This document shows, piece by piece, positions 51,987 to 58,773 of a DNA stretch of 64,000 nt; position 1 is the first letter of the stretch, and each line of letters begins with the position of its first letter. The position numbers and the translations under genes were made by a program. The notes below the pieces were generated by a model that saw only the letters and a list, made by a program, of their open reading frames with translations, made no database searches and was not told where the DNA came from. The stretch lies in assembly GCA_035656635.1 (NCBI GenBank), contig DASRSD010000099.1, forward strand, positions 2-64,001, read 5' to 3'. The DNA is from Pirellulales bacterium. GTDB lineage: Bacteria; Planctomycetota; Planctomycetia; Pirellulales; JADZDJ01.

Positions 51987-52640
51987 TTACTCATCATCGC
52001 TCGGATGTTTGTTCGTCCACGCTTCGTTCAATTTCAAAATGGCCGCATGCATCCGGCTTTTCACGGTGCCGACGGGAATATCCAGCACCTCGGCGGCCTC
52101 GCGATACTTCATTCCTTGGTAATACACCAATAACACGGCTTCGCGCAACGCTTCGGGCAACTCGGCAATGGCTTGTTGCACCCATTGGCGGCGCTCATCT
52201 GTTTCTAAGTTATCGACTGCCAGCGGCTCTTTGCTGGTGAGCAAATCGAGCAGCGAACCGACATCGTCTTGCGTATCGTGGTGATGACCGCGGCGATCCA
52301 AGCTGACCATTTTGTGCCGCCGGTTGCGACGCTGGGCATCAATCGCCTGGTTGGTGGCGATGGTGTACAGCCACGGACGCACTTTGCGTCCCTCTTCAAA
52401 CTGGTCGGCCTTCAAATACAACTGCAGGAACGTCGCTTGGAACACGTCTTCTGCCATCGTGGCATCGCTCAGATAGCGACGCAAATAGCTGTAAAGTTCG
52501 CGTTCGTAGCGTTGCACCAGCAACTCAAAAGCCCGACGACCCCCACGCAACCGATGCTCCATTAACAGCTCTTCGTCGGTTTTCCGAGCCAAAGCTTCGG
52601 GAGTGTCGGTTTGCGATTGTATGTCGATGGCACTACTCAT
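51987..52640 (-). CDS. ECF-type RNA polymerase sigma-70 factor
   Basis: ATG at 52640; region 2 FELLVQRYERELYSYLRRYL...DVFQATFLQLY...RPWLYTIATNQAIDAQRR; region 4 LPEALREAVLLVYYQGMKYREAAEVLDIPVGTVKSRMH. Confidence 0.9.
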   Translation of the reverse strand: MSSAIDIQSQTDTPEALARKTDEELLMEHRLRGGRRAFELLVQRYERELYSYLRRYLSDATMAEDVFQATFLQLYLKADQFEEGRKVRPWLYTIATNQAIDAQRRNRRHKMVSLDRRGHHHDTQDDVGSLLDLLTSKEPLAVDNLETDERRQWVQQAIAELPEALREAVLLVYYQGMKYREAAEVLDIPVGTVKSRMHAAILKLNEAWTNKHPSDDE

Positions 52641-52730
52641 CTTTATACGCCCCGGCTGGGAAGCGGTTCGCGGTGGGGGCCCATTGCCGGGGCAAAGTTT
52701 CGCCCAAATTCCCCCTGGCAAAGCACGAGC

Positions 52731-52759
52731 ATTATACATGGCATTTTTCCTTCTGTCCG
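52731..52759 (-). promoter_or_regulatory. candidate sigma-70-type promoter for the ECF sigma operon
   Basis: Minus strand CGGACA-N17-TATAAT, about 90 nt upstream of ATG 52640. Confidence 0.3.
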
Positions 52760-53368
52760 ACTCATTGCCGGCGAGCGCACACGATGAGAAGAATGAAGGA
52801 AAATGACTGCGCGTCGCAGGGGTCGAACGGGTTCGCACCCTACATTCGCAAGTGCCGTGCCTGCCAACCATTTGCAACCATTCACCGCAGATATCGGCGG
52901 CAGGCTGCAAAACCCTCTCGCCACAAACCCTTAGCGAACAGGCGCTTTCGTCACCATATTGGAACATAGCCCATTTCGGGCGACCGCGAACAACCGGCGG
53001 GCAAATCGCTGGAAACCCGCTTTTTCTCGGCTCATGCCGAAACGGCAGTCTCGAATTGAGACGCCCTTGGCAATTGCGGCCATTCGCACGGACGAAAGTT
53101 GCCGCCGGCTTTTGTCCCCGATTATTATTTTCCGGACAGAACTGGAATGTTTTGTCGCAGGCTCGCTGCTGCCGGCAGGGAAAATTCGCGGATTTGCCAA
53201 GTGTTGTGCGTGACATAATCAGGCCAGTTTGCGTCGCAAAAGATGTATTGTTGGTGAATTGTTGCTCGTCAGGTCAGTGATCGGTGGTCGGTAAAAATTA
53301 GCCCCGGCTCTGCCGGGGGGCCGCAGCGGAAAACGGTCGCATCATCCCGCCGCATGGCACAAATTTTA

Positions 53369-53392
53369 AAAGCCGCGACCGTCTGTCGCGCT
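53369..53392 (+). repeat. 24-nt hairpin element AAAGCCGCGACCG-NNN-GTCGCGCT, copy 1
   Basis: aaagccgcgaccgtctgtcgcgct; matches 56620-56643 except the 3 loop positions. Confidence 0.7.
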
Positions 53393-53751
53393 TGCCCATG
53401 GGAACCCGTCGCACTGGCCCATGGGCGGCTGCCGACGAGTAATACCAGTGATACATCAGGTTTACCAGTGTTACGGTACAGACGTACACTATAGCAGAAC
53501 AGTGGCCCAAAAGTTAGCCAAAAAATTTTCCGGCTGCGAATTTTTTTACCCCAGAGGACGCAGGGGAACACAGAGGCAGTGAAGGCTTAATATGGGACTT
53601 CAAACCGTATTTAAGAGCTGCGCGCGTCAGCAAGCGGCTAGGACAGCAGCGACAATTGCTACAACTGCTATGGGACATTTCGCCAAACTACGCCAGAATG
53701 GTTGCGTTTCGAGTTCATCGTTTATATACAAGTGTATAGGAGACATCGACC

Positions 53752-53935
53752 GTGAGCGATAATTCGAAAATCGAATGGACCGACGCCATCGTGGAACCCC
53801 GTGCGCGGCTGCGTAAAAATCAGCCCCGGCTGCACGCATTGTTATGCTGCCACCTTCGCCGAGCGTTTCCGCGGCGTGCCAGGGCATCCGTATGAGGGCG
53901 GGGAGAATGTTTTACTTCACCCACAGGTGGGAATG
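53752..53935 (+). pseudogene. DUF5131 (phage Gp37/Gp68-like) gene fragment, frameshifted and 3'-truncated
   Basis: GTG 53752 gives VSDNSKIEWTDA; after 1 extra nt the next frame gives WNPVRGCVKISPGCTHCYAATFAERFRGVPGHPYEGG; only about 60 codons remain. Confidence 0.6.
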
Positions 53936-53940
53936 CTTAC

Positions 53941-53985
53941 TTCAAATCCACCGTCCAGTAGGCGTTGTCGACGAAGGTTTTTCGG
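53941..53985 (-). pseudogene. relic copy of the 3' end of the HNH endonuclease gene
   Basis: about 41/45 identical to 55718-55762; minus strand still reads KTFVDNAYWTVDLK-stop versus KTFVDSAYWTVDLK-stop in the intact gene. Confidence 0.8.
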
Positions 53986-54036
53986 AGGCAGGTTGCATGC
54001 CGCGGGGCCCGGTGGGTGAGCCGCGGGGCCGTGGAG

Positions 54037-54080
54037 ATTAAAACAGCGGCACCCCTGCGTGGCCGCAGAGGCTAAGCGGG
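54037..54080 (+). repeat. REP copy 1 (stem variant CTGCG/CGCAG)
   Basis: attaaaacagcggcacccCTGCGtggcCGCAGaggctaagcggg. Confidence 0.85.
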
Positions 54081-54135
54081 ATCGGCAGGGCGCGGCGGCG
54101 AAGGGGTGAATGGCTGCTGCGCGAACTAAGCCGGA

Positions 54136-54603
54136 TTACGCCACTGTGAAATCCCAGCCGGAAAGAACCAGGCTGGGCAGCAATTCGGGATTGTGGCTGA
54201 CGAGCTTGATTTCGATCGACCGCGGGCCGGCGGGAATTTTCAATTCCGCTTCGTAGGTGGCGCACCACTGCGTTTCGTCTTCGAACGGCTCCTCGGCCTG
54301 GTCGCGAGGAATGTAATCGTCGTCCACAAAGACCAACTCCTCAACCAGCTTGGCGGGCACCCAATCGGCGTGCGATTGCACATCGTCCTGATCGGTCGGG
54401 TTGTTGGGGTCGCCTATCCGCACGAAAATTTCCGCTTCGTCGAACGGGCCGTAAGAATTGGAATGCGTAATGCGGACCGTGGTGGGCCCGGCGGCGGTGG
54501 GCTGTTCCGGAATGGTGATGCCCTGTATTTCGGATTCGGCCGGCAGCTCCCAAAAGTTGGGCGAATCAGAAACCATTTTGTGCGTGGCGGCATTGGGGCT
54601 CAT
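54136..54603 (-). CDS. hypothetical acidic protein (passenger between REP copies)
   Basis: ATG at 54603 (MSPNAATHKMVSDSPNFWELP...); 155 aa; no family recognised. Confidence 0.5.
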   Translation of the reverse strand: MSPNAATHKMVSDSPNFWELPAESEIQGITIPEQPTAAGPTTVRITHSNSYGPFDEAEIFVRIGDPNNPTDQDDVQSHADWVPAKLVEELVFVDDDYIPRDQAEEPFEDETQWCATYEAELKIPAGPRSIEIKLVSHNPELLPSLVLSGWDFTVA

Positions 54604-54728
54604 ACGCGGTCCTCGCTGGTCAGTAAATGAGATGAGAATTTGAGACAGGACGCGAAGGCGAACGCCGGCTGTTATCGCGCGCGGCGAAGCCAGATGCAAG
54701 TGTTGTGGGACCGGGGAAATTAAAACAG

Positions 54729-54770
54729 ATTAAAACGGCAGGACCCCGCGTGGCCGCGGGGGCTAAGCGA
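54729..54770 (+). repeat. REP copy 2
   Basis: attaaaacggcaggaCCCCGCGtggcCGCGGGGgctaagcga; left end ATTAAAACAG duplicated at 54719-54728. Confidence 0.85.
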
Positions 54771-54922
54771 ATGAGTGGCGGGGGCTAAGCGGGTTCGGGG
54801 CAAAGCGGTATGATATGGGCCGCGAGGGCCAAGCGGGAGGATGGAGTGGCGAGGGGCAAAAAAATGAGGCGGTTGGAAATTCATGGTTAGCCCGGTCGGC
54901 CACGACCGGTGGAGCATTCGCA

Positions 54923-55630
54923 ATGTCGCGACCGGTAATTGGTTACCATTCGATTTTCGGCGCGTATGGATTTTGGCTTCCGAATGATCCCCGCGGGTCA
55001 TGGTCAGAGGTTGTGAAAGCCGAGCACTTGAAACCCTTTGGGGAACCGATTCATCCTGGCACGCGACACTCGGTTGCAAATCGAAAACACGATTCAGCCC
55101 TGCGGCTTGCGGCGAAACAACATCTGCTGCGGAAGAATGTCACATTCCGCGACGACCAAATTGAATGTCTGGCTGGCGGTTTTGGTGAATTGATCCGGCA
55201 AATAAAACTCGTCGTGTTTGCATTGGCGATCATGCCGGACCATGTGCACTTGGTTTATCCTCGACCCGAATGCGATGCGGAGGAATTTGTGGGCATGCTG
55301 AAGCGCGCGGGATCCAGGGCGCTGCGGAAAGCGGGGCTGCATCCGTTTGGCAAGGTCGATGATACCCGCGCGAAAGGTGAAAGCAGAACCGCTTGCGTGG
55401 ACGCGGGTGAAGCGGACGAAGAAATATCCCGCGTGGACGCGGGGGCTAAGCGGGAGAGGCGGTTGCCCACACCATGGGCCGAGAAAGCCTGGCACGTTTA
55501 TTTACACGACAAGCAGGAAATACGGCACAGGATTGGATACGTAGTGCAGAATCCCATCCAAGCGGGCAGGCCCGCGCAGCATTGGGATTTCGTGACGGCG
55601 TTTCACGATACGCCGCGTGGTTGCGGGTAA
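54923..55630 (+). CDS. REP-associated tyrosine transposase (RAYT; IS200-like Y1 HUH family)
   Basis: ATG at 54923 after GGAG; HUH motif MPDHVHLV; C-terminal catalytic-Tyr helix RIGYVVQNPIQAG; flanked by REPs. Confidence 0.8.
   Translation: MSRPVIGYHSIFGAYGFWLPNDPRGSWSEVVKAEHLKPFGEPIHPGTRHSVANRKHDSALRLAAKQHLLRKNVTFRDDQIECLAGGFGELIRQIKLVVFALAIMPDHVHLVYPRPECDAEEFVGMLKRAGSRALRKAGLHPFGKVDDTRAKGESRTACVDAGEADEEISRVDAGAKRERRLPTPWAEKAWHVYLHDKQEIRHRIGYVVQNPIQAGRPAQHWDFVTAFHDTPRGCG
55389..55454 (+). repeat. two REP copies inside the RAYT ORF
   Basis: ccgcttGCGTGGACGCgggtgaagcgg (55389-55415) and cCCGCGTGGACGCGGgggctaagcggg (55428-55454), translated ACVDAGEAD and SRVDAGAKR. Confidence 0.85.
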
Positions 55631-55632
55631 GG

Positions 55633-55715
55633 AAATAACCCCGCGTGGCCGCATGCGATTAATTCCCCGCGTGGCCGCGGGGGCTAAGCGGGATGACAGG
55701 TTGCGGGGGCTAAGC
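55633..55715 (+). repeat. REP copies 5 and 6 plus a half copy abutting the HNH stop codon
   Basis: aaataaCCCCGCGtggcCGCatgcg / attaattCCCCGCGtggcCGCGGGGgctaagcgg / gcgggggctaagc. Confidence 0.85.
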
Positions 55716-56347
55716 TATTTCAAATCGACGGTCCAGTAGGCGCTGTCGACGAAGGTTTTCCAGCTTTCGTACTTGGGGTTATCGAGCTTCACGGACAATA
55801 GCGGGCTGCGCTTCGGCTTAATTGGCGGGCGGACCAATTTCATGTGCGCTTCGTGCGGCGTGCGGCCCCCTTTGCGCACGTTGCAGTTGACGCAGGCGCA
55901 CACCACGTTTTCCCAACTGGTTTCGCCGCCGCGGCTGCGGGGCATGATGTGATCTAAGCTCAATTCGCTGGTTGGGAACACTTTGCCGCAATATTGGCAA
56001 TGGTTGCCGTCGCGGGCAAACAGATTGCGGCGGTTGAAGCGCAGCGTTTGCCGCGGCACTTTATCGTAAGAGAGCAGCCGGATGACGCGCGGGGCTTGCA
56101 GCTCGAAATTGACAGCGCGAATCCAATCTTCGTGCTGCTGCTTGCAGGCGGCCCGCATGGTGCTGATTTCCAACCAGGTTTCGAAGTTGTAGTTGGCGTA
56201 TTGGCCTTCTTCGAAATGAATGACTTCGGCCAGCTCGCGGAACAACAGTCCCAAGGCCCGGCGGACGTTGATGACGTGCACCGCCATGTAAAACCGGTTG
56301 AGCACCAACACGCTGGAACTAAGCCCGCCTTGAGCAAATGCCGTCAT
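55715..56347 (-). CDS. HNH endonuclease
   Basis: HCQYCGK...LSLDHIMPRSRGGETSWENVVCACVNCNVRKG (HNH with CxxC pairs); 210 aa. Confidence 0.88.
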   Translation of the reverse strand: MTAFAQGGLSSSVLVLNRFYMAVHVINVRRALGLLFRELAEVIHFEEGQYANYNFETWLEISTMRAACKQQHEDWIRAVNFELQAPRVIRLLSYDKVPRQTLRFNRRNLFARDGNHCQYCGKVFPTSELSLDHIMPRSRGGETSWENVVCACVNCNVRKGGRTPHEAHMKLVRPPIKPKRSPLLSVKLDNPKYESWKTFVDSAYWTVDLK

Positions 56348-56619: not shown

Positions 56620-56643
56620 AAAGCCGCGACCGGTGGTCGCGCT
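56620..56643 (+). repeat. 24-nt hairpin element, copy 2
   Basis: aaagccGCGACCggtGGTCGCgct; 6-bp stem. Confidence 0.7.
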
Positions 56644-57050: not shown

Positions 57051-57359
57051 ATGATTCAGCATATGTGTGATCTGTGCAAGCGTTTGATCGACACGGAGCA
57101 GGATGTGCGCTACGTGGTCAAAATGGAAGTGTACGCTGCGTTGGATCCGGCACTGGACGAAACCGACGATGACCGCGATGGCTTGCAGGAAGTTCAGGAA
57201 ATGCTGCAACGCATGGAGGAAACCGGCACCGAAGGCGTGGCCGAGGAAGAAGTGTATCAGCAGATGCGCTTCGATTTGTGCCCGGAATGCCGCAAGAAGT
57301 TTTTGAAGCAGCCGCTGGGTCGCGAAGCGATCAAGCACTTTGATTTCAGTCAGAACTAA
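57051..57359 (+). CDS. small acidic zinc-ribbon-like protein
   Basis: MIQHMCDLCKRLI...FDLCPECRKKF (two CxxC pairs), acidic centre; ATG at 57051. Confidence 0.55.
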   Translation: MIQHMCDLCKRLIDTEQDVRYVVKMEVYAALDPALDETDDDRDGLQEVQEMLQRMEETGTEGVAEEEVYQQMRFDLCPECRKKFLKQPLGREAIKHFDFSQN

Positions 57360-57396: not shown

Positions 57397-57599
57397 AAGT
57401 GATTTTTTTGAAACTGCTGGCGCTAAGCAGTTGGCGGTAGGCGGCCGCCGGCTGGCTCGGTTGAAGCGCTGCGAATGAATTGGTCCACGGCTGTGGCTGT
57501 TGGGCATCTCTAGGCAATTGGCATGCGCGAGGCGCCGCTGCTTGTGAGCGCCGGGGCGTGCCGCTAAAATTGCGACTTGCGCGGCGGTGATTTTTTCAC

Positions 57600-57634
57600 G
57601 CTCCGCTTGCGCATCGCGGCTAAACCGCAAGCGG
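57600..57634 (+). repeat. third copy of the dinG-type element, as a 9-bp hairpin
   Basis: gctCCGCTTGCGcatcgcggctaaacCGCAAGCGG; shares GCTCCGC and TCGCGGCTAAAC with the 13445 and 14577 copies. Confidence 0.7.
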
Positions 57635-57696
57635 ATAGATGCCAACGTGTCGAATCGTCTCTTGATTCTCGACCCTCAACCCTGAGCCCTGCTTTC

Positions 57697-58773
57697 ATGT
57701 CCACTCTGAAATTGGCCGTAATTCCCGGCGACGGCACCGGGCCGGAAGTGACCGCCGAAGCCCTCAAAGTGCTGAACGCCGTGGCCCCGCTGGAAAATTT
57801 TAAGTACGAAACCACGCCTTTCGATTGGGGCTGCGAGCGATATTTGAAAACCAAGGAAACGCTGCCGGCCGGCGGCGCCGACGAGCTGCGAAAATTCAAC
57901 GCCGTGTTTTTGGGCGCCGTGGGCCATCCCGACGTGGCGCCGGGCATTATCGAAAAAGGGCTGCTGTTGGCGCTGCGATTCGAGCTGGATCAGTATATTA
58001 ACTTGCGGCCGGTGCAATTGTTCCCCGGCGTGGAAACTCCGCTGGCGGGCAAGGGACCGAAGGACATCGATTTTGTCGTCGTCCGCGAGAACACGGAAGA
58101 TTTGTATTGCGGCGTGGGGGGATTTCTCAAAAAAAACACGCCCGACGAAGTGGCCACGCAAGCCGCCGTGTATACCCGCAAGGGTTGCGAGCGCTGCATT
58201 CGCTGGGCGTTTGAGTACACCCGCAAGCGGAATAATCCCAAGGGAAAAATGCTGACGCTGGTAGCCAAAACCAACGTGCTGACCTTCGGGCACGATTTAT
58301 GGTGGCGGGCCTTTCAGGCCGTGGCGAAAGATTACCCCGACGTGAAGGCCGATTACAACCACGTGGATGCCTGCTGCATGTGGATGGTGAAATCGCCGGA
58401 ATATTACGACGTAATTGTCACCACGAACATGTTCGGCGACATCATCACGGATTTGGGGGCGATGATTCAGGGCGGCCTGGGCGTGGCGGCCGGCGGGAAT
58501 ATCAATCCCGATCCGGGCGGCGTGAGCATGTACGAGCCGATGGGAGGCAGCGCGCCCAAGTACACCGGGCAGAACGTCATCAACCCCATCGCCGCCGTGG
58601 GCGCGATGAGCATGCTTTTGGAACATTCAGGCCAACCGAAAGCCGCGGCCCGGGTGATGAAGGCCATCAAGCAAGTGACGGGCACGAAAATGAAAAGCCA
58701 GGCCGCCGGCAAAATGGGCTACAGCACCACGCAGGTCGGCGACTTGGTGTGCGAGGCGATGGTGAAGGGGTAG
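57697..58773 (+). CDS. isocitrate/isopropylmalate dehydrogenase family enzyme (3-isopropylmalate or tartrate dehydrogenase-like)
   Basis: ATG at 57697; [61 protein letters not shown]. Confidence 0.75.
   Translation: MSTLKLAVIPGDGTGPEVTAEALKVLNAVAPLENFKYETTPFDWGCERYLKTKETLPAGGADELRKFNAVFLGAVGHPDVAPGIIEKGLLLALRFELDQYINLRPVQLFPGVETPLAGKGPKDIDFVVVRENTEDLYCGVGGFLKKNTPDEVATQAAVYTRKGCERCIRWAFEYTRKRNNPKGKMLTLVAKTNVLTFGHDLWWRAFQAVAKDYPDVKADYNHVDACCMWMVKSPEYYDVIVTTNMFGDIITDLGAMIQGGLGVAAGGNINPDPGGVSMYEPMGGSAPKYTGQNVINPIAAVGAMSMLLEHSGQPKAAARVMKAIKQVTGTKMKSQAAGKMGYSTTQVGDLVCEAMVKG

Follow-up and report, generated by a model that had tools for sequence, protein, structure and literature searches.

A stranded relic of an HNH gene end beside a REP/RAYT block in a Pirellulales genome

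The window, a stretch of 64,000 nucleotides from a contig of a Pirellulales bacterium (DASRSD010000099.1), carries a 45-nucleotide direct repeat that is formed by the 3' end of a gene for an HNH endonuclease and brackets a block of repetitive extragenic palindromes (REPs) with the gene of a REP-associated tyrosine transposase (RAYT). Its coordinates are those of the JGI metagenome contig Ga0376680_0000097 (3300036855). The HNH gene encodes 210 amino acids on the minus strand (55715-56347), and its last 45 nucleotides, KTFVDSAYWTVDLK-TAG, constitute the right copy of the repeat (55715-55759). Beyond its stop codon lies REP cluster a (55636-55715, plus strand), followed by the plus-strand gene of a RAYT-like Y1 (HUH) transposase of 235 amino acids (54923-55630), a conserved hairpin upstream of that gene (54888-54912, plus strand) and REP cluster b (54716-54840, plus strand). 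Next come the 5' region and start codon of a minus-strand gene for an acidic protein of 155 amino acids (54595-54702; gene, 54136-54603) and REP cluster c (53982-54092, plus strand). The left copy of the repeat, KTFVDNAYWTVDLK-TAA (53937-53981, minus strand), has no gene body; past its stop codon are a post-stop flank, GCATTCCCACCTGTGGGTGAAGTAAAAC (53909-53936, minus strand), and a plus-strand N-terminal pseudogene fragment of the DUF5131 family with one frameshift (53752 to about 53926). An earlier note on this DNA had read everything between the two copies as a single insertion into the 3' end of the HNH gene, bounded like attL and attR.

A repeat search returned a direct repeat between 53938-53981 and 55716-55759 which is identical at 40 of 44 positions with a spacing of 1778; with the stop codons included, the copies extend over 53937-53981 and 55715-55759 and agree at 40 of 45 positions. 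The repeat noted earlier is thus real, but it had been placed 3-4 nucleotides off (53941-53985 and 55718-55762), with an offset of 1777 that is out by one and an identity of about 41/45. A degenerate 41-nucleotide pattern of the repeat has just two matches on both strands of the 64 kb, where 100 shuffles gave an expectation of 0. On the minus strand each copy reads in frame as KTFVD[N/S]AYWTVDLK followed by a stop codon, in agreement with the earlier observations that the left copy still reads to a stop and that the right one is the true end of the HNH gene, which is the sole HNH gene in the window. The five differences (left/right) comprise AAC/AGC, which exchanges asparagine for serine, the silent changes ACG/ACC, GTG/GTC and AAG/AAA, of which only the first two had been counted before, and the stop codons TAA/TAG. 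The similarity of the copies has sharp limits, the K197 codon at the inner end and the stop codon at the outer. An extension of the repeat past the stop codon into a REP (ACAGGT...GGG) was considered and rejected, as the outer flanks show no significant similarity. The arrangement is not an artefact of assembly: both copies are covered by a 1959-bp contig of an independent Logan assembly that matches 53804-55762 at 100% identity, and on the contig of the NCBI metagenome-assembled genome the acidic protein, the RAYT (same 90% cluster) and the HNH protein stand under consecutive accession numbers.

The left copy is indeed what remains of an HNH gene end. Asparagine at the N/S site is a natural allele, found in the HNH homologues P0002, P0012 and P0035, and the distance between the left and right copies (5/45) is that seen between the tails of separate lineages (2-6/45). 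The probability that five random substitutions would preserve the reading frame and the stop codon and alter no more than one residue is 0.005-0.015. For a copy made in situ that decays neutrally while the live copy changes silently, a hand calculation in which about four fifths of the differences are expected on the dead copy gives P ~0.07. The coding-like divergence therefore mildly favours the left copy having evolved as a working gene end, and the earlier view that it descends from a once-functional allele and did not arise by random similarity holds, with no chance matches and with differences that fit coding constraint to this mild degree. The left copy would accordingly stem from a different allele than the right one. 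When the HNH 3' ends of relatives are aligned to the copies, the right copy mostly follows the HNH bodies nearest to the window, agreeing with the locus L087 at 3 of 4 differing sites and with L082 at 3 of 4 and in the stop codon. For the left copy the best matches are L086 (42/43) and L002 (42/45). These affinities are weak given the few sites. After its stop codon the left copy is followed by 28 nucleotides of its own (53909-53936), unlike the REP which abuts the right copy. This flank, which starts GCATTCCCACC (also quoted as GCATTCCCACCTGTGGG), weakly resembles the HNH post-stop sequence of L032 and L033 (P ~0.03, suggestive).

The RAYT protein scores 25.1 bits against the Pfam family Y1_Tnp, for which the cut-off is 23, and 46 bits against the NCBIfam family REP_Tyr_transpos, which is under the cut-off of 80. 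Its HVH motif (H107-V108-H109) and catalytic tyrosine (Y206) are invariant in the RAYT alignment, and the window holds one copy of the gene. Between the HUH and tyrosine motifs the open reading frame (ORF) contains a REP-derived in-frame insert (about 55390-55460), which occurs with variable length in all four lineages of the clade (the window, L084 1504-1553, L085 1902-1990 and L086 1268-1311) and is absent from relatives of about 197 amino acids. Directly upstream of the RAYT start, all four lineages share a hairpin, GCTTAGCC-CGGTCGGCCACGACCGG, which in the window reads GTTAGCC-CGGTCGGCCACGACCGG (54888-54912; L084 about 1033-1055, L085 about 1405-1430, L086 about 735-760). Within this hairpin is the REP tail motif in reverse complement, and the hairpin may have a regulatory role or form an end element.

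The REPs consist of a 7-8 bp GC-rich stem, a 4-nucleotide loop and a GCTAAGC tail and are all in one orientation. Clusters flank the RAYT gene (54716-54840 and 55636-55715) at the same positions in L084, L085 and L086, and no REPs were found in the other 62 kb of the window or in about 0.9 Mb of sequence from HNH-anchored loci without a RAYT of this clade. Cluster b contains a full REP (54743-54771) and then partial REPs. Cluster c begins with GGAGGCAGGTTGC, a spacer such as comes after a full REP within a doublet, continues with two half-REPs (GCCGCGGGGCC) and includes a degenerate full REP at 54049-54080, and cluster a ends in the motif GGGGGCTAAGC, which shares 1 nucleotide with the HNH stop codon. 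The left copy is adjoined by GGCAGGTTGC and half-REPs, and elsewhere GGCAGGTTGC comes after a full REP (55694-55704). With GGGGGCTAAGC at the right stop codon and GGCAGGTTGC beside the left copy, both junctions of the repeat are located at borders of REP units; the 8-mer CAGGTTGC occurs three times in the window, twice at these junction spots. Outside the block, a REP-variant hairpin (TTAGCCCCGG...CCGGGG) is present at 53297-53322, and similar hairpins occur 50-110 nucleotides past the HNH stop codon in two loci without a RAYT, L175 (about 1520-1550) and L176 (about 2040-2070). Such hairpins may be relics of lost REP/RAYT units. The hairpin in the window is overlapped by one half of an 18/19-nucleotide match, GTAAAAAT[T/C]AGCCCCGGCT, between non-coding sequence at 53291-53309 and the KISPGC codons of the DUF5131 fragment at 53813-53831.

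The relatives' loci that were compared comprise 80 genome loci, 13 loci fetched by exact protein look-up and 80 distant RAYT loci. In L083, L084 and L086 a RAYT gene with REPs is convergent to the same HNH gene. L084 and L086 are collinear with the window at about 74% nucleotide identity over 1.25-1.5 kb, and L083 matches up to the end of its short contig. The far side of the RAYT gene is occupied by a PNPOx gene in L084 and by an unrelated ORF in L086; neither of these loci, both of which hold that side, has a second HNH tail, and none is seen in L083 as far as the contig reaches. L176, where the HNH gene is 88% identical at the nucleotide level and no RAYT is present, has the 5' region and start codon of the acidic gene 196 nucleotides past the HNH stop codon, in a region 78% identical to 54595-54702 of the window. 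This layout makes the acidic gene a native neighbour of the HNH gene and delimits a true presence/absence difference of the RAYT to about 54703-55714, whose left edge is the acidic gene's 5' region and which is bounded by REPs and not by the HNH tails. The acidic protein itself contains 29 aspartate and glutamate against 8 lysine and arginine residues and belongs to a conserved unnamed domain family (88 clusters at 50% identity) that is either stand-alone or C-terminal to ankyrin-repeat proteins of 250-620 amino acids.

The closest RAYT homologue (71% amino acid identity) is encoded at L085, a locus without HNH, where the order is a gene end of 39 residues (2-121), the gene for TcmP, the three-Cys-motif partner protein (TIGR04474, E = 4e-59; 145-1002), five REPs, the RAYT, another REP and an unrelated gene. 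The 39-residue gene end has no family match and looks like the C-terminus of a DUF5131 protein, and together with the TcmP gene beside the RAYT it would link DUF5131 to this RAYT clade in a second lineage; the DUF5131-TcmP pair may be a module that settles next to REPs. In the window, the DUF5131 piece corresponds to about 58 N-terminal residues out of the 243 positions in the family profile, has its frameshift near 53785 and ends 10-30 nucleotides before the left copy. No close full-length relative of the piece was identified in a search that gave mostly short fragments, probably owing to the choice of candidates. Many DUF5131 ORFs on long contigs have only 51-107 amino acids and consist of the N-terminus alone (P0252, P0255, P0268, P0272, P0355 and P0361), and a split DUF5131 pseudogene is found at 6001-6689 of L094. 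Decayed DUF5131 genes seem to be common, though the search may favour short sequences.

With the RAYT and REPs beside HNH in other lineages, the acidic gene in L176 and DUF5131 at L085, the RAYT, REPs and acidic gene of the window are, on the evidence of gene order, resident DNA and not an inserted mobile cassette. The earlier proposal that everything between the copies came in as one insertion fails on the RAYT genes that have no second tail in L084 and L086 and on the acidic gene that has no RAYT in L176. The related idea of an insertion that supplied a replacement gene end is compatible with the topology of the locus, but the intervening DNA is resident and does not constitute one inserted element.

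The HNH gene has more than 6000 homologues and is 75-96% identical across the Pirellulales, with a C-terminal tail that is nearly invariant. The wobble positions of this tail vary freely among lineages, so that there is no conserved DNA core. On the other side of the stop codon conservation is lost, and homology to relatives ends there in every comparison, closest pairs included. L087, the nearest HNH relative with long flanks, has an HNH gene of 90.8% nucleotide identity and the same genes on the 5' side, and past the HNH gene come DUF1854, an ABC transporter and cyanophycin synthetase. The HNH genes of L082 and L083 are 92.7% identical, yet their downstream genes are entirely different, those of L082 being a small ORF and then a PIN-domain gene (toxin-antitoxin-like). 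A Pfam scan of 135 ORFs downstream of HNH in about 70 other lineages gave ordinary genes such as those for extracytoplasmic function (ECF) sigma factors, PGM and aminotransferases. The break at the stop codon even in close pairs shows an unstable, REP-rich region in which the flank has been replaced repeatedly, within the same clade that has REPs and a RAYT at this locus. Mapped onto the HNH tree, the RAYT occurs in the window, L083, L084 and L086 and is missing from the sisters L087 and L082 as well as from L175 and L176, a patchy distribution which fits either inheritance with losses or repeated gains.

Duplication of the HNH gene end is not confined to the window. Near-tandem partial copies follow directly after the stop codon in L025 (6610-6700, several nested copies), L029 (6610-6645), L035 (6610-6645) and L017 (6631-6645). 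Three of these duplicates begin at the same Ala203 codon, and their unit borders lie at a CGAC microhomology; shorter repeats of the gene end just past the stop codon are present in L022 and L004, and over all six loci the copies measure 9-27 nucleotides. At a cut-off alignment score of at least 13, partial duplicates of the gene end were found in 4 of 75 HNH loci and at 2 of 504 control ORF ends (Fisher p = 0.003), which would imply that the HNH gene end is prone to duplication. A further sequence connected with the HNH locus is a 24-nucleotide hairpin, AAAGCCGCGACCG-N3-GTCGCGCT, which has just two sites in the 64 kb. At 56620-56643 it lies in the 5' region of the HNH gene, where L087 and L176 retain it with 96% conservation; the second site, 53369-53392, is to the left of the stranded tail.

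The explanation that we favour, tentatively and with a probability of about 0.4, is that the left copy was stranded by recombination with the HNH region of a relative, in the REP-rich stretch that starts at the HNH stop codon. The donor would have been DNA of a related strain with the normal order REP, acidic gene, REP, RAYT, REP and HNH. Homologous exchange would have taken place within the HNH gene or further toward its 5' side, and on the other side the incoming DNA would have been joined illegitimately, at a REP-unit boundary, to the codon of K197 in the resident HNH gene. The incoming tail and gene body would then have become the working gene, leaving behind the last 45 nucleotides of the resident gene with their own downstream flank and the adjoining decayed DUF5131 gene; a site-specific recombinase would not be needed. 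Such a route would account for the coding-like divergence of the copies, the separate post-stop flank, the resident genes in between and the repeated replacement of flanks at this stop codon. Several points weigh against it. Neither a donor nor a recipient lineage turned up, nor did a DUF5131 gene directly beside an intact HNH gene, and the HNH gene with its 5' flank gives no mosaic signal or breakpoint against L087, L176 and others. The likeness of the post-stop flank to L032 and L033 is marginal and ties for best match in the window with the L032 probe, though not with the L033 probe. The silent-change argument against a copy made in situ is, at P ~0.07, suggestive and not decisive. The DUF5131-TcmP arrangement next to the RAYT in L085 moreover hints at a prior link of DUF5131 and RAYT, which fits a local event more simply and otherwise requires an earlier deletion in the recipient.

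Such a local event, followed by neutral drift of the left copy, is the main and a serious rival, possible if somewhat doubtful, and two variants can be envisaged. In the first, a tandem duplication of the 1.78-kb unit of tail, REP, RAYT, REP, acidic gene and REP would have been followed by a deletion that removed the second unit along with the DUF5131 3' part and TcmP. In the second, replication would have switched templates at REP hairpins, so that 45 nucleotides of the gene end were copied into the junction of a deletion. DUF5131, RAYT, acidic gene and HNH are all linked to one another in relatives, including the DUF5131-RAYT link of L085, so that no foreign DNA would be required. The template would have been available at a distance of only 1.8 kb and in direct orientation, both junctions coincide with borders of REP units, the near-tandem duplicates of L025, L029, L035 and L017 set a precedent at 4/75 versus 2/504, and the silent-only pattern retains its P ~0.07. 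However, a neutral dead copy should bear most of the differences, with residue changes or loss of the stop codon, and none of this is seen; the left copy has a downstream sequence of its own in place of the REP of the right copy; and the tandem route takes two events, of which one deletion would have to end exactly at the stop codon. A left copy that remains from a second full-length HNH paralogue, brought in for example by a Campbell-type single crossover with an HNH-bearing circular DNA or by segmental duplication and later deprived of its body, would likewise have been a once-working gene end and would agree with the second piece of the HNH locus, the hairpin at 53369 beyond the left copy. 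It is nevertheless improbable, given that no locus with two HNH genes occurs among more than 90, that 52600-54150 holds no further HNH fragments, nor any of TcmP or RAYT, besides the left tail and the DUF5131 piece, and that on the left side hairpin and tail are not ordered as in a simple second unit. Chimeric joining at a conserved sequence, to which metagenome contigs can be subject, or chance similarity can practically be dismissed, with no matches expected by chance, with frame, stop codon and a natural allele all kept, and with an identical Logan assembly across both copies.

Site-specific integration of a mobile REP/RAYT cassette, or of an element with a recombinase of another kind, at the HNH 3' end, with a replacement end and with the copies as attL and attR, is unlikely as well. 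The topology of old end, intervening DNA and working end does match such an element, as do the patchy presence of the RAYT beside HNH in close relatives, the hypervariable flank downstream of the stop codon and the duplicated gene ends that recur in other lineages. Against these stand the lack of a second tail in L084 and L086, the acidic gene beside HNH where the RAYT is absent, the REP-bounded presence/absence difference, the missing DNA core in the tail and a distance from REP to HNH stop codon of 0-25 nucleotides among RAYT-bearing lineages, a variability that leaves no precise insertion point. As the earlier note had stated, there is no integrase and only the Y1 transposase as a candidate enzyme, which applies to the gene calls and Pfam families of 44136-64199 (-10/+8 kb); no recombinase is found among the recurrent families downstream of HNH in about 70 lineages (single-member families being covered as far as the top 25). 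Y1/HUH enzymes of the IS200/IS605 type, for their part, are not known to duplicate their target or to carry gene ends. Nor does the locus have a tRNA, tmRNA or Rfam element as an insertion target, and base composition and GC skew give no signature of foreign DNA. An empty site at which DUF5131 would adjoin an intact HNH gene, which the earlier note had looked to relatives for, is absent from more than 90 loci, and with no integrase, tRNA, recurrent junctions or empty site the proposed attL/attR signature is not supported, nor is the relic evidence for an integrative element that works without an integrase. Among the matches listed, none of the 80 more distant RAYT loci has HNH, DUF5131, TcmP or the acidic gene near the RAYT, and a metagenome scan with the RAYT protein gave relatives of at most 47% identity and no closer contexts. 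It seems more unlikely still that the HNH 3' end is a preferred docking site of a REP/RAYT unit, or of an integrase-free process, that carries or regenerates the gene end; if it were, the patchy RAYT, the hypervariable flank and the recurrent partial duplicates of the HNH end in the Pirellulales would be scars of docking activity.

The genes on the 5' side of HNH, a 102-amino acid gene (57051-57359) and an Iso_dh gene (57577-58773), are syntenic in relatives. On the left, an ECF sigma gene (51987-52640, minus strand) is separated from the DUF5131 fragment by about 1.1 kb (52641-53751) which has no convincing gene and no Rfam match, is unusual in a compact genome and is probably decayed sequence. 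The ECF sigma gene was considered as an ancestral neighbour of HNH that would place the left copy, and was rejected because it is not orthologous to the sigma factor genes downstream of HNH elsewhere.

Should the left copy have been stranded by recombination with a relative, the locus would present an ordinary footprint of flank replacement beside a conserved gene, and it cautions against taking direct repeats of a gene end, on their own, as a sign of an integrative element. Of specialist interest are a Planctomycete RAYT clade with REPs only around the gene and inside its ORF, the presence/absence difference of a RAYT between sister lineages at one locus, and an HNH gene end that is duplicated more often than control ends.

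Among known systems the closest to the block itself are the REP/RAYT systems of REP-associated tyrosine transposases (PMC3116915, PMC5581495), whose RAYTs are described as single-copy, REP-flanked and mostly vertically inherited (PMC5581495). The window agrees in its single Y1/HUH gene with intact HUH and tyrosine motifs, in the GC-rich palindromes with a conserved tail motif on both sides, and in a RAYT that is collinear with HNH in three other lineages, where it may be inherited with its neighbour gene, and that is absent from the nearest HNH relatives L087 and L082. It departs from them in a gene that falls under the NCBIfam RAYT cut-off (46 versus 80 bits), in REPs that, within the 64 kb and the related loci, occur only around the RAYT, in one orientation and without inverted REPIN doublets, and in the REP-derived insert within the ORF. 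To our knowledge gene-end duplication is not a feature of RAYTs, and if a RAYT were shown to create such junctions this would be the first link of REP/RAYT activity to gene-end duplication. Integrative elements that enter the 3' end of a gene or tRNA and restore it resemble the locus in repeats that are a gene 3' end, one working and one displaced, which differ as alleles do, and differ from it in their integrase, typical cargo, recurrent junctions and empty site, whereas the DNA between the copies is resident here. Transposition of the IS200/IS605 type proceeds by insertion beside a short specific target without target duplication, unlike the 45-nucleotide duplication and the REP-to-stop spacing of 0-25 nucleotides. 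REP-associated rearrangement and microhomology-mediated tandem duplication form a candidate class by virtue of the junctions at REP borders and the CGAC borders of HNH-end duplicates in other lineages, from which the locus is set apart by copies that are 1.78 kb apart with two genes between them. The other candidate class is homology-facilitated illegitimate recombination, or flank replacement anchored in a conserved gene; the route is one that we infer, and the joint would be located inside the anchor gene and leave a 45-nucleotide relic, but the locus and this class have in common an anchor that is conserved, here HNH with the syntenic genes on its 5' side, homology that ceases sharply at the gene end and a single illegitimate joint.

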